A DNA stretch of 5,879 nucleotides from Escherichia coli (lineage in GTDB: Bacteria; Pseudomonadota; Gammaproteobacteria; Enterobacterales; Enterobacteriaceae), in assembly GCF_003334815.1 (NCBI RefSeq), contig NZ_QOWO01000072.1, one strand, 5' to 3'. Position numbers and translations under genes: made by a program. The notes below the pieces were generated by a model. The model was not told the origin of the DNA and searched no databases. It saw nothing but the letters and a program-made list of their open reading frames with translations. Shown piece after piece: positions 78 through 5,879 of this stretch (within the stretch, counting starts at the first letter, position 1; each line of letters starts with the position of its first letter).

Positions 78-248
78 GGTTTGGCGTTTCCCTGCCAATA
101 TTTGATAGCCAACCCAGAGGATATAAACGCTAATACCTGCACTTAGAAGAGATAACATATCTTGGCCTAATTGACTTTGAAGTGGTTTGGTCATCTCTTC
201 GATTTTACTAACAACTTCGCTATTAAACTTTTCAAAGAAACCAGACAT
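51..248 (-). CDS. 65-aa membrane ORF resembling the N-terminal segment of VirB6/TrbL-family proteins (possibly a truncated gene)
   Basis: ATG at 248 preceded by AGGTGA, 4 nt after the stop of the upstream lipoprotein gene. MSGFF... then one hydrophobic helix (LSLLSAGISVYILWVGYQIL) followed by AGKR, the usual start of VirB6-type proteins, but it stops at TAA 51-53 where canonical proteins continue for about 250 aa. Confidence 0.4.
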   Translation of the reverse strand: MSGFFEKFNSEVVSKIEEMTKPLQSQLGQDMLSLLSAGISVYILWVGYQILAGKRQTGVPWAFLR

Positions 249-252
249 GTTA

Positions 253-516
253 TCACCTGTTCAATCCATGTTGCTTATCATATTCAGCTGACTCAGCCTT
301 AAGTATTTCAAGCATAGGCCCATAGGTTCTACCAATAATTCCGGCAACTTTTTTAACATTTTGACAATTAACAGAGTCTTCCCCTGACTTTTTACACTCC
401 TTATATTTCTCCGTTGCTTCTTTGGGATGATTTAGCCACCAATCTGATGATTTTGTATCTTCACCACATGCGGAAAGAATAAAAATAGATATCAAGAGTG
501 TACAAATTTTTTTCAT
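253..516 (-). CDS. Small secreted lipoprotein (87 aa); position immediately upstream of a VirB6/TrbL-like ORF suggests a TrbK/entry-exclusion-like role
   Basis: N-terminal signal peptide MKKICTLLISIFILSAC with lipobox L-S-A-C; GAGGA Shine-Dalgarno 7 nt upstream of the ATG at 516; stop TGA at 253-255. Confidence 0.6.
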   Translation of the reverse strand: MKKICTLLISIFILSACGEDTKSSDWWLNHPKEATEKYKECKKSGEDSVNCQNVKKVAGIIGRTYGPMLEILKAESAEYDKQHGLNR

Positions 517-536
517 CTTTGATTCCTCGTATGGAC

Positions 537-578
537 ATTACAATTGCTGATGCAATCAGCAATTGTAATTTTTGTCAA
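537..578 (-). promoter_or_regulatory. Perfect palindrome (15-bp arms, 3-bp spacer) plus adjacent minus-strand TTGACA; candidate operator/promoter for the lipoprotein operon
   Basis: ATTACAATTGCTGAT-gca-ATCAGCAATTGTAAT at 537-569, 21 nt upstream of the ATG at 516. Minus-strand hexamer TTGACA at 578..573 immediately upstream. No clean -10 hexamer identified. Confidence 0.4.
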
Positions 579-617
579 CTAAAAAAAACACCTATTGCAT
601 TATGCTATTTTTTGCAA

Positions 618-902
618 TTAATCCGCTTCAAATCCAAAACGAATCTCTTTTATGTTCAAAAGCAATCTCAATAAGATCATCGGTCTTAACGATGAAGCTG
701 AAGCACAACTTAATTTAGCTCTTGCATTAAATAACTGCCCCTGAACTGTTCCCGGTGTTGTATTTCTAAAATAAGCTATTTCATCAATAGTAAATCCTAT
801 GCTGTATAAAATGGTCACGCTCTTTTCCGCATCGATTAATCCTTCATCGTCGTAAAAGATTTGATGAAGTTGAGAAATGCGTATAGCATCATGCTTAGTC
901 AT
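618..902 (-). CDS. Small helix-turn-helix DNA-binding protein (sigma-70 region-4 / KorA-like HTH)
   Basis: 94-aa ORF; AGAGG Shine-Dalgarno 6 nt upstream of the ATG at 902. Segment FTIDEIAYFRNTTPGTVQGQLFNARAKL fits the T-x-G-T-V HTH pattern. Lies 76 nt downstream of repA on the same strand. Confidence 0.5.
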   Translation of the reverse strand: MTKHDAIRISQLHQIFYDDEGLIDAEKSVTILYSIGFTIDEIAYFRNTTPGTVQGQLFNARAKLSCASASSLRPMILLRLLLNIKEIRFGFEAD

Positions 903-978
903 AATAACCTCTAGCCAGGTTGTTGTGATTAGCGGTTTGTCAGAGTTGCAACCTCTGGCAAATCGCGCCGATTAAATA

Positions 979-1728
979 TCAATTTTTTATAATCTTTGAT
1001 TGCTCATCTTTTTGAAACCAGAATTCAAGACGAACGACTTTTTTGCCTCTTTTTAATGGCTTCCACTGGATTATCCAATTATCTTTTTCGGTCAACTCTT
1101 TTACGGCAGGTTCTATCACCCTTTCTCTGAGTAATCCAAAGGTTTTTTTATAACTTTCAGGAGATTCCATTGCGTGATGAAAATCATCCAGCGATATAGA
1201 TAACCATCCGTTATTGTCTTTGTGGGTATTCATTTGCTCGAATAATTCAAGCAACCGCCATGAGTGAACAGAGCGCAGTCCGCAAGCCTGAGATAGCTGG
1301 TATTTAGTGAAATTTTCTTCCAGTTCGCATAGATAGGGGGTGACCTGTGGTGTGAAGCTCAAAACAACGTGCGCTTCACCTTCATTGTATTTATAAGCAC
1401 CTAACCATCTGATTTTCCAGACATCAACATCTGTTTCGCTTACTTCGTTTATTCTGAAGCTAATGTAGCGGTTAAAAAAATTGTCAGCAGCGATTTTTAA
1501 TTGTGAATACGCTTGTTTTAAAGGCATTCCAAATGTATTGGCGTATTCTTCAGCCGTGATTTTAATCGGGGTGTACTGTCCGCCCATTTTGGCTATTGCA
1601 GCAAAAATGATGCGTTTTTCAGCCAGTGACAGGCTTTGCGCTGCTCTCGTAATGGCATTGCTCATCACGATATTTTTCCCGCGCAGGTTCAAGGTCATGG
1701 TAATGGATTCAGTTTTTTTCCCTTTCAT
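979..1728 (-). CDS. repA: Rep_3-family iteron-binding replication initiator RepA
   Basis: Architecture matches pSC101/R6K-type initiators as remembered: NAITRAAQSLSLAEKRIIFAAIA (winged-helix 1), WKIRWLGAYKY...PYLCEL, SISLDDFHHAM...LEFWF. Preferred start is ATG 1728 (MKGKK, preceded by AGGCGGAGAG); the track ORF extends to 1782 and internal ATGs at 1698 and 1665 are alternatives. Stop TGA 979-981. Cognate iterons lie 130 bp upstream. Confidence 0.85.
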   Translation of the reverse strand: MKGKKTESITMTLNLRGKNIVMSNAITRAAQSLSLAEKRIIFAAIAKMGGQYTPIKITAEEYANTFGMPLKQAYSQLKIAADNFFNRYISFRINEVSETDVDVWKIRWLGAYKYNEGEAHVVLSFTPQVTPYLCELEENFTKYQLSQACGLRSVHSWRLLELFEQMNTHKDNNGWLSISLDDFHHAMESPESYKKTFGLLRERVIEPAVKELTEKDNWIIQWKPLKRGKKVVRLEFWFQKDEQSKIIKN

Positions 1729-1761
1729 CTCTCCGCCTAAATAGGTCAACTGGCACTTGGA

Positions 1762-1845
1762 AAAGTAACAGGTATCGGGCAACTGTAACGAAGATAAACG
1801 ATGTTATCGCACAAGTAAAGTAACATTGCTTGTTGCTGTTACTTT
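1762..1845 (-). promoter_or_regulatory. repA promoter/operator region with inverted iteron half-sites (candidate autoregulatory operator)
   Basis: Iteron core GTTACTTT occurs as AAAGTAAC at 1762-1769 and 1817-1824 and as GTTACTTT at 1838-1845. The pair 1817-1824 / 1838-1845 forms an inverted repeat with 13-bp spacer between the iterons and the repA start. Confidence 0.45.
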
Positions 1846-1849
1846 TGCC

Positions 1850-1858
1850 TGTGGATAT
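1850..1858. promoter_or_regulatory. DnaA box-like site (8/9 match)
   Basis: TGTGGATAT, reverse complement ATATCCACA versus consensus TTATCCACA; directly abuts the iteron array. Confidence 0.35.
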
Positions 1859-1860
1859 TG

Positions 1861-1944
1861 CCCGAAAAAAGTTACTTTTAACCCGAAAAAAGTTACTTTT
1901 AACCCGAAAAAAGTTACTTTTAACCCGAAAAAAGTTACTTTTAA
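1861..1944. repeat. Four tandem perfect 21-bp iterons (CCCGAAAAAAGTTACTTTTAA)
   Basis: Unit starts at 1861, 1882, 1903 and 1924; all four copies identical, contiguous, no spacers; located upstream of a Rep_3 initiator gene. Confidence 0.9.
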
Positions 1945-2040
1945 CGCTGTAACTTGATGATTCAAAAGAATTTCTAGCGACTAAAAAGGTTTTAAAAAAA
2001 AAGATAAAAAGGATTTAAAAAGGAATTTACCCCCAAAATC
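1945..2040. other. AT-rich, A-tract-phased region of the origin (candidate DNA unwinding/bending element)
   Basis: Strongly AT-rich by inspection; AAAAAGG recurs at 1983-1989, 2006-2012 and 2017-2023; flanked by iterons on one side and a perfect DnaA box on the other. Confidence 0.4.
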
Positions 2041-2049
2041 TGTGGATAA
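2041..2049. promoter_or_regulatory. DnaA box (perfect 9-mer)
   Basis: TGTGGATAA is the reverse complement of TTATCCACA; sits at the edge of the AT-rich origin region. Confidence 0.5.
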
Positions 2050-2156
2050 CTCTGCTTAAACCAAGAGGACAGATCACGTTACGTTAAGACAACAAACCTA
2101 ATAAACGACGCGCTCATTTTTTAACCGCTACGCGTAAGTGCTCAAATCAATACCTG

Positions 2157-2222
2157 CTCTCTTCCGCTTCCTCGCCCACTCGCTCACTAACGTTCGGTCG
2201 CTGGGGCTGCGGCGAGCGGTGC
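2157..2222. other. Segment resembling the ColE1/pBR322 primosome assembly (n'-type pas/ssi) region
   Basis: CTCTTCCGCTTCCTCGCCCACTCGCTCACTAACGTTCGGTCGCTGGGGCTGCGGCGAGCGGT is recognisably similar, from memory, to the pBR322 stretch CTCTTCCGCTTCCTCGCTCACTGACTCGCTGCGCTCGGTCGTTCGGCTGCGGCGAGCGGT. Lies about 110 bp from the oriV DnaA box in a GC-rich ORF-poor island. Confidence 0.3.
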
Positions 2223-2589
2223 CACCTCCCGCATGTTGTCGGTTATTCCGTTGCTGTACTGTTCGGAAATTCGTTCTGTGAGCCATCCAGAACACCAGAA
2301 CTCGATTTTCTGGTCCCGGTAATGGTATCCCACGTCTTAGCCCTTAAAACGCGCTCAGAAACTCTCTGAGGCGCTAAAATGCCAACAGATGCCCGTCAGG
2401 GCATGGAAGGTGCGAAAAACGCTTACAGAGGGTTTCAGGAGGCCAAGCGCGCCGATACCCCTAACCAGGGGCTTTCAGGTCGCTAAGAACCGCGTCAGCC
2501 CCCTGCAAAGCAAAAATTGCACGAAACAGGCAGCCACTCGGTTGGCAGGTGGTCGTAGACCGTCGATGTTGCAGCGATGATTGTATTAA

Positions 2590-2934
2590 TCATCTAATGC
2601 TATGGTTGGTGACTTCTTTTTCCAGAGCCTTATTAACAAAAGCATTCAACGATAAATCTTCTTCCATCGCCATTTCTGCTACCCGACGATGCAGTTCTGG
2701 ATCAAGCCTGACGTTAAACACGCCTTTAAACGGGATATCAGGTTCCTTTCCATCCTCCACACAAGACTGTAAATACAGATCAACCGATGTTTTAAACTCC
2801 TGTTCCAGTTCAGCTAATGTAGAAGCCTCATAAGTTACCAGGTCCCGAATAAACGCCAGTTTTCCATACAGGACATTATTTTCAAAATCGGGTTCAACTG
2901 TACCTAAATATCCTTTATATTTTAAATGTTTCAT
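2590..2934 (-). CDS. hicB: HicB-family antitoxin (N-terminal HicB fold plus C-terminal ribbon-helix-helix DNA-binding domain)
   Basis: 114 aa; C-terminal FNVRLDPELHRRVAEMAMEEDLSLNAFVNKALEKEV is a typical RHH segment of HicB antitoxins. Start ATG 2934 overlaps the hicA stop (ATGA at 2931-2934); stop TGA 2590-2592. Confidence 0.8.
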   Translation of the reverse strand: MKHLKYKGYLGTVEPDFENNVLYGKLAFIRDLVTYEASTLAELEQEFKTSVDLYLQSCVEDGKEPDIPFKGVFNVRLDPELHRRVAEMAMEEDLSLNAFVNKALEKEVTNHSIR

Positions 2935-3179
2935 AATAATCCGGCCTCTTTCAGATTCTGTTTAATCGCTTTCAGCGTACCACCTTTAATATAACTTTCC
3001 GGATGTGGGCGATGCATTAATATGGTGTGGTTGATATCAGCATTGAAAAACCGCACTCTTGACCCCTGCATTTCTTTTTTGACATATCCCAAAGAGGAAA
3101 ACAAAACGACCAGTTCATCCCATTCAAACGTTTTTTTGCTGTTTAAAAACTTCGCCAGTAGTTTATCTGTTTTTCCCAT
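2931..3179 (-). CDS. hicA: HicA-family toxin (mRNA interferase)
   Basis: 82 aa; GSRVRFFNADINHTILMHRPHPESYIKGGTLKAIKQNLKEAGLL resembles the E. coli HicA core (GSNH...PRHP...LRKAILKQLGL, remembered). GGGGAG Shine-Dalgarno 3 nt upstream of the ATG at 3179; toxin-first order typical of hicAB. Confidence 0.75.
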   Translation of the reverse strand: MGKTDKLLAKFLNSKKTFEWDELVVLFSSLGYVKKEMQGSRVRFFNADINHTILMHRPHPESYIKGGTLKAIKQNLKEAGLL

Positions 3180-3193
3180 ACGCTCCCCTTGTT

Positions 3194-3229
3194 TGTAACT
3201 AATTATAGTTACAGTGTTGTTTTTGTCAA
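3194..3229 (-). promoter_or_regulatory. Consensus sigma70 promoter for hicAB with overlapping palindromic operator
   Basis: Minus strand: -35 TTGACA (3229..3224), 16-bp spacer, -10 TATAAT (3207..3202), about 23 nt upstream of the hicA ATG. Palindrome TGTAACT-aattat-AGTTACA (3194-3213) overlaps the -10. Confidence 0.55.
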
Positions 3230-3320
3230 ACGTGCCCTCAATGGAACATTTGAGCAGAAACTAAAGCTTGGAGACTCCCAAAATTAGAGAGGAATTACTT
3301 AAAGGCTGCAAAGAACCAAT

Positions 3321-3368
3321 GCAGGATAGACAATCCGATGTCAAATGGTACCATTCGATATCGGATTG
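3321..3368 (-). other. Candidate oriT: near-perfect 38-bp palindrome followed on the minus strand by a TATCCTG|C nick-like motif
   Basis: CAATCCGAT-gtca-AATGGTACCATT-cgat-ATCGGATTG at 3331-3368. On the minus strand the motif TATCCTGC (3328..3321) follows 2 nt after the repeat and fits the MOB_P-type nick consensus YATCCTG|Y. Lies in the divergent intergenic region next to a MobC-like gene. Confidence 0.35.
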
Positions 3369-3419
3369 TCCAAAAACAGGGTTTTTGCCTGTGCCTGCCG
3401 CAGGCTCTATGGAGTGAAG

Positions 3420-3923
3420 ATGAAACAGATAAAATTCAGACTTAGTGGTGATGAGTTAAAACTTGCAGAACATAACGCGATTTCAAGTGGATTTTCCAGT
3501 ATCAATACATTTGCCAGACATAATGTGCTTAACATTGAAACTAAGCCTGTTAATATCCCAGTTAATAATGAACCAGCAAAGCTGGTATCAGTGCGCCTTT
3601 ACCCTCATGAAATAGAACTTGTTAAACGTAATGCTGCCCTTCACGGCATGAGCATGAGCAGAGAAATTGCTATTCGTGTGCGTCAGTCTTTGTTAAAGAA
3701 TGAAGTCTGTCTTTACCCTGATGAAGTTAAGGAACTTAAAAAACTATCAACTGCTGTAGATCGTGTTGGTCGCAACATTCATTTTATCATAAAAGGTGAA
3801 AGATTCTGCACGGTTAACGATCCAGATTTCAGAAAAGACGTTATTGAAGTGATTGAACTGTGTAAGCAAATTGATTCAAAACTTGAAACGTTAACCAAGA
3901 GTGTTGTTAACAGATTTGGTTAA
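3420..3923 (+). CDS. MobC-like relaxosome accessory protein (tandem ribbon-helix-helix segments)
   Basis: 167 aa from ATG 3420, with GGAG 7 nt upstream; the track ORF start at 3345 lies inside the palindrome and is rejected. Two RHH-like segments (IKFRLSGDELKLAEHNAISSGF; KLVSVRLYPHEIELVKRNAALHGMSMSREIAIRV) and C-terminal LKKLSTAVDRVGRNIHFIIKG resembling the MobC L..L...R.G.N motif. Stop TAA 3921-3923. Confidence 0.45.
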   Translation: MKQIKFRLSGDELKLAEHNAISSGFSSINTFARHNVLNIETKPVNIPVNNEPAKLVSVRLYPHEIELVKRNAALHGMSMSREIAIRVRQSLLKNEVCLYPDEVKELKKLSTAVDRVGRNIHFIIKGERFCTVNDPDFRKDVIEVIELCKQIDSKLETLTKSVVNRFG

Positions 3924-3929
3924 AATCAA

Positions 3930-3948
3930 GGCCATCAAATAGATGGCC
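3930..3948 (-). terminator. Hairpin between convergent genes; likely intrinsic terminator for the minus-strand VirB5-like operon
   Basis: GGCCATC-aaata-GATGGCC (7-bp stem, 5-nt loop). On the minus strand it is followed by TTGATTTTA (U-rich); on the plus strand the downstream tract is not U-rich. Confidence 0.4.
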
Positions 3949-3955
3949 CTAGCTG

Positions 3956-4258
3956 TTATCTCATCGTAAATCGCATTACGATTAATAACAGAAGTAAAAT
4001 ACAAAACAGCTTCAACGTAAAAAGGAGTCTTTCTTTTATACCACCGCTGGGAACAAACCTCTTTTCAATTCTATCAGTGATAAATTGCAATGTGCCATAA
4101 TACATAAAAGCATTAACCAGCTTTAACGTAAGCTCCATACTTAAAACAATAACTATTATTGGTAGAGATATTAACAGTGGCGGCGGTGTAGAACCGGTAC
4201 TATTCAATCTAGACCAATGATTATCTACCCATTCTTTTAGCTTATTTAGCTTTATCAT
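3956..4258 (-). CDS. Small integral membrane protein (100 aa, two hydrophobic helices); entry-exclusion-like by position after the VirB5-like gene
   Basis: ATG at 4258 lies 1 nt after the VirB5-like stop (TGAtATG); the track ORF's longer N-terminus overlaps the upstream gene. Hydrophobic stretches PLLISLPIIVIVLSMELTL and LLFTLKLFCILLLLLIVMRF. No family recognised. Confidence 0.45.
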   Translation of the reverse strand: MIKLNKLKEWVDNHWSRLNSTGSTPPPLLISLPIIVIVLSMELTLKLVNAFMYYGTLQFITDRIEKRFVPSGGIKERLLFTLKLFCILLLLLIVMRFTMR

Positions 4259-4259
4259 A

Positions 4260-4973
4260 TCATTCGAAACTCGGTATTTTGGCATTTTTCTGACGTAAAC
4301 GATACTCTGCATACTTTTGTTCTTTCAACATTTCCGCATCAGCCCTGTTTTTACTATCCCATACATCATACTGCATTTTAATTGCCTGTATTTTTAACGA
4401 CTGAGCCTGTAATGCGTTAGCTAAATCCTGGGATTCCTTCATATCCTTTGAAGACTCAATTCGGCTACTTAAACTCTGAATCTGAGACATTGCACTTGAT
4501 AGCTGCTTATTTATCTCATTTCCCTGTTCAATGCTGGCGGCCGTTGAAACTATTCTGGCCTTACAAAGGTTATCAGAACTTTCAATGCCTGTATTACACA
4601 TATCAAACGCTCCATACTTACTGAACAGATTTTTAGCCTGGCTGCTTAATGCACCTTCGGGATTACTGGTAAAATCAGAAATATAACTGTTCCCCTGCTT
4701 ATAAATGTTTGCCAACTCTGATTGCAGGTTACTTAGTTCATTTGTGAATGCCGCAATATTCCTTATACCTGTTGCCGTGGCTAACTGGTCTTTATATGCC
4801 TGAATCTGACTTTGATAATGCCGCGCTGTTTCAGACCATTGTTTGAGTCGTTCTGTCCATCTTGTGGCTTCAATGGCCCATTCCGGACTGGCATCAATAG
4901 CAACCGGAATACCTGCGACAGAACCAAATGAAAATAAGCACAAAAGTACTGAAAAAATTAGTTTTTTGTTCAT
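4260..4973 (-). CDS. VirB5/TrbJ-family type IV secretion minor pilus protein
   Basis: 237 aa; signal peptide MNKKLIFSVLLCLFSFGSVAG, then GIPVAID and a Gln-rich coiled-coil stretch (QSQIQAYKDQLATATGIR) as in VirB5/TrbJ proteins. Strong GAGGAG Shine-Dalgarno; start overlaps the upstream gene's stop (ATGA at 4970-4973). Confidence 0.7.
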   Translation of the reverse strand: MNKKLIFSVLLCLFSFGSVAGIPVAIDASPEWAIEATRWTERLKQWSETARHYQSQIQAYKDQLATATGIRNIAAFTNELSNLQSELANIYKQGNSYISDFTSNPEGALSSQAKNLFSKYGAFDMCNTGIESSDNLCKARIVSTAASIEQGNEINKQLSSAMSQIQSLSSRIESSKDMKESQDLANALQAQSLKIQAIKMQYDVWDSKNRADAEMLKEQKYAEYRLRQKNAKIPSFE

Positions 4974-5710
4974 GCTGAACTCCTCGCACGTGCTTTTTCC
5001 AGGGATGCTCGTCTTCTTGCTTCCATTCCCAATGCGCCTGTTGAAGCCCGTTTCTGCTCCACTTTTTCACCTGCCCATTCGGCGGCTGTTTGCGTTCCCC
5101 GTTTCATTTGGTTTCTCGTTTTCTCTACGGCCATCCCAGCAGCCCCAATCCCTAAAAGAGCCATTCCCTGAAGAGTACCTTCGACACCTGCACCAGCAAG
5201 CTGCTGCGCGAAACTCGATGATTTCCAGACAAAGACAGCAATCAGAACTCCAATTACAAATGCCATTGCGCCCATTGTTAAAATATTTGTTGAGTTAGCA
5301 TCTCTCGATATCTGACTAAGCATATCAGTTTGAAACTCAGTACCAATTTTGACGAGAACTCCTGCAAAAATAACAGTAAATACACTAGAAAATAATATAC
5401 CAAGCCAGTTATTAAACATTACTCTGGTGAATCCAAACATATGACAACCGATAAATATCGGAGCTACAAGAATAGCTAACTGCATTGTTACATCGGCAAG
5501 CATGTAAATAACAGCCGCTACAGACATAATCAGGATGCTTCCTCCCCAAACCAACATTGAACCGATCCCACCCTCAACTGACACATATTTGGATTGATCC
5601 ATAGCATAAACTTTGTCTGCCAAAAGCTGAGTTGTACTCCACATGGTATCTAGCGTTGCCCATACAGGTTTACCAAGGAACCCATCCTTCATAGATTTAA
5701 TAGCATCCAT
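4970..5710 (-). CDS. VirB6/TrbL-family polytopic inner-membrane protein, lacking the canonical N-terminal segment (possibly N-terminally truncated)
   Basis: 246 aa with 4-5 hydrophobic helices and a charged C-terminal tail. APIFIGCHMFGFTRVMFNNWLGILF matches the conserved VirB6 P-x-F-I...TR..F..W block (remembered from Brucella/Agrobacterium VirB6). The frame is open upstream to TGA 5861-5863 with no ATG/GTG/TTG before ATG 5710, and the ribosome-binding site is weak. Confidence 0.7.
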   Translation of the reverse strand: MDAIKSMKDGFLGKPVWATLDTMWSTTQLLADKVYAMDQSKYVSVEGGIGSMLVWGGSILIMSVAAVIYMLADVTMQLAILVAPIFIGCHMFGFTRVMFNNWLGILFSSVFTVIFAGVLVKIGTEFQTDMLSQISRDANSTNILTMGAMAFVIGVLIAVFVWKSSSFAQQLAGAGVEGTLQGMALLGIGAAGMAVEKTRNQMKRGTQTAAEWAGEKVEQKRASTGALGMEARRRASLEKARARSSA

Positions 5711-5802
5711 TGCTGCCGTCAGATAGCCATCAGCATTGCTTACGAATGTTAAAATAATGGCAAATTTTGATAGGTCCCAAACGAGATCTTGTAATGGGGT
5801 TT

Positions 5803-5839
5803 GGGGCTCCGTGGGAATTTCTGCGATAACACCCGCTAA
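5803..5839. repeat. Right copy of the imperfect 37-bp inverted repeat (partner at 41-77); an inverted, degenerate copy of the 3' end of the 51..248 ORF
   Basis: Plus 5758-5829 translates to WQILIGPKRDLVMGFGAPWEFLR-stop, versus YQILAGKRQTGVPWAFLR-stop at the C-terminus of the 51..248 ORF (encoded on the opposite strand). Nucleotide identity is 34/37 in the core. Confidence 0.7.
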
Positions 5840-5849
5840 GCGATTTCTC

Positions 5850-5879
5850 CCTGACGGAAATCACTTGTTTTCCGTCAGG
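5850..5879. repeat. Perfect hairpin/inverted repeat at the right window edge (11-bp stem, 8-nt loop)
   Basis: CCTGACGGAAA-tcacttgt-TTTCCGTCAGG; the stem contains the in-frame TGA (5861-5863) that closes the upstream extension of the VirB6-like reading frame. Downstream context is beyond the window. Confidence 0.5.

Follow-up and report, generated by a model that had tools for sequence, protein, structure and literature searches.

A perfect 33-bp palindrome between a PixR-family regulator gene and eex on a small Escherichia coli plasmid as a candidate operator

The PixR-family gene and the eex operon

The DNA analyzed here, hereafter the window, is the 5,879-bp Escherichia coli contig NZ_QOWO01000072.1, a circular small plasmid. 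On its minus strand a gene for a small helix-turn-helix (HTH) regulator is followed by the lipoprotein gene eex and by virB6, and the spacer between the first two genes carries a perfect 33-bp palindrome (Table 1). As the best single explanation, to which we assign a probability of about 35%, we propose that the palindrome is an operator for the upstream HTH protein, lying over an internal promoter of the eex operon.

Table 1. Features discussed in the text, with their positions in the 5,879-bp window (SD, Shine-Dalgarno sequence; MITE, miniature inverted-repeat transposable element).
Feature	Position	Strand	Description
Perfect 33-bp palindrome, candidate operator or hairpin	537-569	.	arms ATTACAATTGCTGAT / ATCAGCAATTGTAAT, + strand loop GCA
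Candidate eex promoter	550-578	-	-35 TTGACA 578-573, 17-nt spacer ending TGa, weak -10-like TTGCAT 555-550
PixR-family HTH regulator gene	618-902	-	94 aa, LuxR/GerE-type HTH, no receiver or ligand domain
eex, predicted EexN-family entry-exclusion lipoprotein	253-516	-	87 aa, lipobox LSAC, Cys17
virB6 5' part (TrbL/VirB6 family)	78-248	-	starts 4 nt after eex stop, cut by MITE
virB6 3' part	4970-5802	-	continuous with 78-248 in uninterrupted plasmid
virB5 (pilX5-like)	4260-4973	-	start overlaps virB6 stop
orf118	3956-4312	-	last operon gene, hydrophobic
SymR-like cis-antisense RNA (candidate)	897-969	+	opposite SD and start codon of HTH gene

Sequence comparison and the predicted fold firmly place the HTH protein as a LuxR/GerE-type member of the PixR family that has no N-terminal sensor domain, in line with the HTH regulator recognized in the preliminary description of this DNA. 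It is 44% identical over 79 aa to PixR of IncX4 plasmids (E 2e-24), and a tblastn search aligned it at 47% identity with about 450 IncX4 records. Of the hidden Markov model (HMM) searches suggested earlier for both proteins, the one with the HTH protein alone gave only weak Pfam matches (E 0.006-0.03). Members of its family match GerE and Sigma70_r4_2, and the family profile retrieves VraR, GerE and RcsB from the PDB. The AlphaFold2 model (predicted local distance difference test score 84.3) consists of five helices and was superimposed by Foldseek on NarL (1je8; template modelling score 0.84 to the target), DosR (1zlj) and RcsB at a root-mean-square deviation of about 1 Å, and also on VraR DNA-binding domains. 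PixR of the IncX4 plasmid pHNSHP23 binds a 120-bp fragment containing the promoter PpilX and activates it 130-fold, and is inactive outside mating (Yi et al., mBio 2022, PMC8725589).

The likeness to PixR, a protein of 97 aa that is equally of the LuxR-C/GerE type and free of a ligand or receiver domain, includes a near-identical N-terminal segment. Both genes are located immediately upstream of an EexN-family gene, and their start and leader share 84-97% nucleotide identity. The surroundings differ. IncX4 and IncX7 have taxC-pixR-eex followed by a terminator and PpilX and, further on, by cds9-pilX1 and the subsequent genes, whereas the HTH gene in the window follows rep, not taxC, on a 5.7-kb non-conjugative plasmid, with no complete type IV secretion system (T4SS) downstream. 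The IncX4 and IncX7 pixR and eex genes overlap or are 4-9 nt apart, but here they are separated by about 100 bp; since the two genes abut in IncX4 and IncX7, the spacer with its palindrome is an added, regulatory-looking module. The recognition-helix residues are also different, RK..D in PixR versus QG..F here.

The second protein is, as judged from sequence, a predicted entry-exclusion lipoprotein of the EexN family. The preliminary description had pointed to entry exclusion and to a clean lipobox, and both are borne out; its view that the protein was unrecognized and possibly undescribed does not hold, as the sequence scores 69 bits with the NCBIfam model NF033894 (EexN family lipoprotein; cut-off 33, E 2.5e-19, residues 4-58) and RefSeq already names the identical protein EexN family lipoprotein. 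The N-terminus reads MKKICTLLISIFILSAC followed by GED. The relevant comparison is thus not TrbK of Trb operons, as first suggested, but EexN of the IncN plasmid pKM101 and the IncX Eex proteins, with which it shares a score above the HMM cut-off, the lipobox and the small size; its identity to Eex of IncX4, IncX7 and IncX1 is 43-59%. In IncX1, eex is likewise directly upstream of virB6 (virB5-eex-virB6), and presumably this applies to pKM101 as well. Distinctive for the protein and its gene are the upstream spacer, a plasmid without complete T4SS and 29 aa at the C-terminus that extend past the family model.

The three minus-strand genes originally reported are all present, but the third is no mini-gene: the ORF (open reading frame) read in the window from 248 to 51 contains, in its first approximately 57 codons, the 5' piece of a virB6 gene split by a MITE. 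The true unit is an operon of eex, virB6, virB5 and orf118 with translational coupling. VirB6 shares about 50% identity with IncX4 VirB6, and Pfam TrbL matches are seen in relatives, while VirB5 reaches 82% identity with IncX4 VirB5 (E 6e-144) and scores 44 bits, below the cut-off, with TIGR02791. HMM searches and comparison with IncX4 gave neither a family match nor an IncX4 counterpart for orf118, which is found in all relatives. The ratio of non-synonymous to synonymous divergence (dN/dS) is 0.03-0.07 for eex, 0.03-0.09 for eex, virB6 and virB5 together and 0.16-0.21 for the HTH gene; because of this purifying selection, the module is to be considered a maintained cassette, not debris.

The complete arrangement (HTH gene, spacer with palindrome, eex, virB6, virB5, orf118) occurs only in 5.7-kb plasmids with an iteron-type Rep, in 4.2-kb RepL plasmids and in copies integrated in larger plasmids. 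Of the complete E. coli genomes, about 0.4% contain it, and more contain a 2.2-kb form, to which we return below. On sequence grounds, these small plasmids are satellites of IncX4. Besides the iteron-type rep, the plasmid in the window encodes a TaxA-like ddp1 (91% identical to TaxA) and hicAB (98% identical to the IncX4 counterparts), so that the oriT/TaxA-like ddp1 and hicAB are shared with IncX4. Strain ETEC6335 contains both a 5.7-kb plasmid and an IncX4-type plasmid, Ec-050-T20-MAC a 4.2-kb plasmid and a 33.8-kb IncX4 plasmid, and L3Cip3 and MIN12 a 2.2-kb plasmid together with IncX4-type plasmids. The 38.8-kb plasmid pOkiPb01695_3 (NZ_AP042573.1, locus L029 of our collection) is a cointegrate of a 5.7-kb plasmid and IncX4, joined at the taxA/ddp1 region. 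The literature searched contains no description of the eex-virB6-virB5 module of small plasmids. The HTH protein and Eex are thus new members of known families, and the spacer with its palindrome represents an architectural variant peculiar to the satellites of IncX4.

The palindrome and its possible function

An inverted-repeat search confirmed the perfect palindrome with 15-bp arms that had been noted at this place. The arms (537-551 and 555-569) are 100% complementary over 15 nt around a 3-nt loop, form only 4 G-C pairs and constitute the longest perfect inverted repeat of the window. Such a dyad is beyond chance: among 300 first-order Markov sequences of the same composition, searched for perfect hairpins with a loop of at most 10 nt, the longest arm was 12 nt and the typical one 7-8 nt. 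As reported before, the palindrome ends 21 nt ahead of the eex start codon (ATG at 516), with the eex SD GAGGAA (528-523) in between.

Divergent alleles were sought in PLSDB (distant blastn), in 241 million metagenome records (exact core pattern), in GTDB genomes (peptide patterns) and in an index of 5.8 billion proteins, and these sources hold only three alleles, in two or three lineages. The loop varies among them, and a single arm change, C to T, is found in integrated copies (loci L013-L015). The HTH gene always immediately precedes the palindrome, as seen in 21 records of PLSDB, in 10 metagenome contigs and in the integrated copies. Arms and leader are unchanged between the two main lineages, which differ only in the loop, at a single position, whereas the synonymous divergence (dS) of the neighboring genes would predict 2.5-4.5 changes in the 30 arm positions; the probability of seeing none is 0.01-0.08.

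The palindrome overlaps a promoter-like element with the only -35-like hexamer of the spacer. This minus-strand TTGACA, already pointed out in the preliminary description, is confirmed, and its first five letters, TTGAC, are retained in all three alleles. From its sequence, it may belong to a working promoter, which would have its start near 543. An operator at the palindrome would then span roughly -26 to +7 of this internal promoter, which combines the TTGACA -35 with a weak, TGn-extended -10. HTH domains of the LuxR/NarL type occupy inverted repeats in dimeric form, and the ligand would be one or two dimers of the PixR-like protein encoded just upstream. Leaving orf118 and other unnamed ORFs out of account, no evident DNA-binding proteins besides RepL and the HTH protein are encoded by the 4.2-kb relatives. 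The Rep of the 5.7-kb lineage is of another kind, which leaves the HTH protein as the one evident DNA binder that all plasmids with the palindrome encode.

The geometry rules out an activator site, because with a center at -42 transcription would start inside the eex ORF; binding of the HTH protein at the palindrome would therefore mean repression, by hindering RNA polymerase. In the reading proposed here, the palindrome would be bound by a protein, the HTH regulator would be this protein and the effect would be repression. Such repression would let a multicopy plasmid limit its output of VirB6 (a polytopic membrane protein), VirB5 (a pilus-tip protein) and the exclusion lipoprotein. The limit on the operon would be set independently of the regulator gene, the translation of which is probably damped by the SymR-like antisense RNA described below.

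Similar arrangements are known from other systems. LuxR and TraR with their lux and tra boxes, and NarL with its 7-2-7 sites, share the DNA-binding fold and a dyad DNA element beside transfer-related genes. However, lux and tra boxes measure 18-20 bp and are centered near -42 for activation, whereas the element here measures 33 bp and is located downstream of the only -35-like hexamer. The KorA/KorB/TrbA repressors of IncP and the repressor network of R388 likewise combine a small plasmid-encoded HTH protein with a perfect inverted repeat over a transfer or exclusion promoter, but they belong to other protein families; here there is a single site and the repression is putative.

A number of observations weigh against an operator bound by the HTH protein. 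The body of the HTH gene (codons 18-94), compared with loci L002, L008 and L013, has a dS of 0.31-0.48, versus 0.02-0.15 in the neighboring genes, and looks like a swapped cassette; together with contact residues that differ in almost every allele, as listed below, this suggests either allele swapping or a changing DNA specificity. The residues of NarL that we take to contact DNA are K188, V189 and K192 (1JE8). At the corresponding positions, taken from an ungapped alignment to the GerE/NarL motif, the HTH alleles have QG..F, AG..L, AA..L or AS..L with the same palindrome arms; QK is also found, and the NH..L allele is the one accompanied by an arm change. Across relatives, operator and recognition helix thus do not covary. 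Moreover, the 2,255-bp plasmids (L006, NZ_CP095131.1, and about a dozen records of identical size) carry only RepL, the HTH gene and a ddp1 with an oriT-like inverted repeat, and have neither the palindrome nor eex or virB genes.

A constant palindrome beside a regulator with varying contact positions, and a regulator kept on plasmids that have no palindrome, would fit an operator for a host factor or for a factor of a helper IncX4 plasmid, with the HTH protein acting elsewhere, i.e., in trans on the transfer genes of the helper or at an upstream site. The co-residence of satellites with IncX4 and the cointegrate point in the same direction. We consider this explanation unlikely, since no similar palindrome or half-site was found in the complete IncX4 plasmid L016 or in partial loci of a second IncX4 type and of IncX7. 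The element also does not fit LexA, CRP, FNR, Fur, Cra, IHF or sigma-54 sites, as compared by eye with the consensus sequences and not by a formal test, and many 4.2-kb plasmids come from genomes that have no IncX4 record among the matches listed.

The distribution of changes along the spacer is a further point against the HTH-bound operator. The lineages are 72% identical in the spacer and 97-100% identical from precisely the upstream edge of the palindrome onwards, and since the step coincides with this edge, the arms sit in a generally conserved block. The palindrome could therefore have no regulatory role and represent a recombination junction or hot spot, or the product of template-switch 'palindromisation', which joins a variable HTH cassette to the conserved eex-virB6-virB5 genes. 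The dS of the HTH gene, 3- to 10-fold above that of eex or virB6, agrees with this, as does the right-hand block, which is diverged by about 2.4%, so that about 0.8 differences would be expected in 33 bp and 1 is seen. Yet the changes expected in the arms from the dS of neighboring genes are missing, the one position at which the main lineages differ belongs to the loop, as expected of a functional dyad, and the plasmids encode no site-specific recombinase. We regard a mere junction as improbable.

The internal promoter assumed in the preliminary description stood only in part. Next to the perfect TTGACA, a canonical -10 was not found and a sigma-70 scan reports no promoter in the spacer; the scan omits the candidate because its -10 has no A at position 2. 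With no convincing promoter in the spacer and no strong terminator between the HTH gene and eex, the two genes might be read through, and the palindrome would then form an RNA hairpin that serves processing, stability or insulation and uncouples eex-virB6-virB5 from the antisense-controlled HTH cistron. The sense RNA indeed folds into a 15-bp stem (minimum free energy of the 121-nt segment -28.7 kcal/mol, z -3.3), the stem is kept while the loop varies, and it stops 8 nt before the SD, which is left free, whereas IncX4 and IncX7 have pixR and eex directly coupled. In addition, the only arm substitution, C to T, gives a G.U pair in the sense RNA and an A.C mismatch in the antisense RNA, but such a single event has a 50% chance expectation. 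An RNA element does not need a perfect 15-bp Watson-Crick stem free of wobbles and bulges, the sense strand has no U-tract and hence is no terminator, and Rfam matches on the palindrome are limited to spurious miRNA hairpins. On balance, a hairpin in a read-through transcript seems a rather doubtful explanation, though one to be taken seriously.

Read in the opposite direction, the palindrome resembles an intrinsic terminator on the + strand that would stop antisense transcription from the eex side: a terminator scan flags 537-569 followed by TTTTTG, and the + strand RNA has a z of -4.6. We reject this possibility as highly improbable because the T-run is not conserved, TTTTTG being confined to the 5.7-kb lineage and replaced by TCTAGT in the 4.2-kb and integrated lineages. 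The few G-C pairs of the stem also argue against it, as does the lack of a + strand promoter or gene upstream.

Further points bear against repression by the HTH protein through the palindrome. PixR is an activator, and its target PpilX, which lies downstream of eex, has no comparable palindrome. Local alignment found no significant similarity between the spacer and the PpilX regions of IncX4 or IncX7 (p 0.05-0.9 against shuffled controls), so that a likeness to PixR-bound PpilX seen by eye (TTGCATC...GTCCATA...) was discarded. The antisense control suggests a low level of HTH protein, which would suit an inducible activator more than a repressor that is always present. Furthermore, a length of 33 bp exceeds that of usual LuxR-type sites. 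No second copy or half-site was detected in the window, where the arm sequence does not recur even with 3 mismatches allowed, nor in L016 and the partial IncX4 and IncX7 loci mentioned above; a half-site search that included the 4.2-kb and 2.2-kb relatives gave only chance matches inside coding regions.

The dimeric repressor operator of the preliminary description is thus upheld in its non-random dyad and in a position that fits repression, and is weakened by the variable contact residues, by plasmids that keep the HTH gene without the palindrome and by the activator function of PixR. The comparative sequence evidence neither confirms nor strongly favors HTH repression via the palindrome, which is a reasonable hypothesis. 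If the palindrome is an operator, it is the obvious handle on the control of the cassette; should it be no more than a hairpin or junction, what is left is a pair of PixR-like and EexN genes that were annotated before.

Two sequence elements near these genes were considered on their own. A shared CAAT..GGT.TTTTT motif upstream of the -35 was rejected since its position is inconsistent in an IncX4 variant. The gap between eex and cds9 in IncX7 (L005, Yersinia pestis plasmid pJARS35, 3002-3090) holds another perfect palindrome, the arms of which measure 17 nt and enclose a 3-nt loop, in a region with two further copies of AATCATAA; the IncX4 PpilX has CGAATCAT twice. The IncX7 palindrome might serve as terminator, as PixR box or in both roles, but its A5/T5 flanks and its location at the site of the ordinary IncX4 terminator make termination the simpler explanation. 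A PixR box of the same geometry was dismissed, the half-site being out of register with the palindrome in the window.

A candidate antisense RNA at the start of the regulator gene

Opposite the start of the HTH gene, the sequence likely encodes a SymR-like antisense RNA. The Rfam model RF01809 (SymR) matches with 44.2 bits (E 4e-6), below its gathering score of 61, and the match begins at the complement of the ATGACT of the HTH gene. With lower scores, the model also matches the 2.2-kb plasmid (37.2 bits) and IncX7 (34.1 bits) at the corresponding position. Homologous loci are L006 1218-1290 (-), L005 2433-2506 (-), L004 2430-2506 (-), L003 6043-6119 (+) and L002 2261-2336 (+).

The strongest argument for an RNA comes from covariation in an alignment of seven loci (the window, a 4.2-kb plasmid, a 2.2-kb plasmid, an integrated copy, two IncX4 types and IncX7). 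The predicted RNA has two stem-loops in which 98.9% of the cells are paired. In helix 2, 8 of the 14 pairs show compensatory changes, versus 0 of 500 shuffles and 0-3 in slid controls, and the stem sequence in the window is entirely unlike that of the other loci and still pairs. G.U wobbles count as standard pairs on the + strand only. A promoter-like element on the same strand (TTGATG 861-866, 17 nt, TAGCAT 884-889) would start transcription at 896-897, the 5' end of the match; it is embedded in the codons for the invariant D5-A6-I7 and H13-Q14-I15 and is identical in IncX4 and IncX7. The 74-nt antisense stretch is 84-97% identical across the IncX4 types, whereas the proteins are only about 44% identical.

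Like FinP of traJ in F-like plasmids and SymR of symE in E. coli, the RNA would be a short, cis-encoded, two-stem-loop antisense RNA over the SD and start codon of its target. The target of FinP is the master activator of transfer, TraJ; here it is a LuxR-type regulator and not TraJ or a toxin, and, different from SymR proper, the score stays below the gathering cut-off and the RNA is known from sequence alone. By analogy, it would be a FinP/traJ-like control layer, which fits the inactivity of PixR outside mating. No mention of an antisense RNA for pixR was found in the literature searched, including the PixR paper. IncX4 plasmids are among the main carriers of mcr-1 colistin resistance, with PixR as the master activator of their transfer. 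The antisense RNA, if real, would hence add a FinP-like layer of fertility inhibition to the main mcr-1 vector, explain why PixR is silent outside mating and offer a target for blocking IncX4 transfer.

The satellite cassette and other features of the plasmid

The composition of the cassette, with its own PixR paralog, a divergent Eex and VirB6 and a helper-like VirB5, allows for a more far-reaching scenario, which we put forward as speculative and do not expect to hold as a whole. The 2- to 6-kb plasmids would be dedicated satellites of IncX4, whose Eex-VirB6-VirB5 cassette re-programmes the exclusion specificity or the mating-channel composition of the helper T4SS, or excludes rival IncX4 plasmids. 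The PixR paralog would switch the cassette via the palindrome, and the SymR-like RNA would restrain both this paralog and the pixR of IncX4 and IncX7. A satellite module under selection points to parasitism or interference of one plasmid on another, and could either raise or lower the spread of mcr-1.

In the plasmid of the window virB6 is broken because a MITE of 154 bp has inserted, lying across the window ends (5803-5879 and 1-77) and splitting the gene for 332 aa that is intact in the 5,720-bp relative L001. The 5,718-bp Salmonella plasmid LR792480.1 matches the window at 100% identity over positions 78-5804, and the 5,720-bp E. coli plasmid NZ_CP122591.1 does so at 98.7%. The MITE has 38-bp terminal inverted repeats of the Tn3-family type (GGGG...ACGCTAAG), with a 5-bp target duplication, GGTTT, at its edges (5798-5802 and 78-82). 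It is absent from every other small-plasmid relative examined, and PLSDB holds no intact copy; both ends, 394 bp apart, are found there in six E. coli plasmids and one end in many others.

Outside the cassette, four exact 21-bp iterons (1861-1944) are located upstream of rep, and a partial inverted copy (1761-1782) overlaps the rep start region; iterons upstream of rep together with an inverted copy over its start are the usual layout for iteron-mediated autoregulation. A near-palindrome of 42 bp (3329-3370; 21-nt arms, 90% complementary, no loop) just upstream of ddp1 is probably part of oriT or a ddp1 operator, and a related inverted repeat occurs at the same place in the 2.2-kb plasmid. Finally, a non-coding, GC-richer segment (2158-2580) is 86-92% similar to the non-coding part of Col(MG828)-type plasmids of approximately 1.5 kb and of other small plasmids (927 PLSDB records), and a stretch within it, near 2160-2230, resembles what we take to be the primosome assembly site of ColE1/pBR322.

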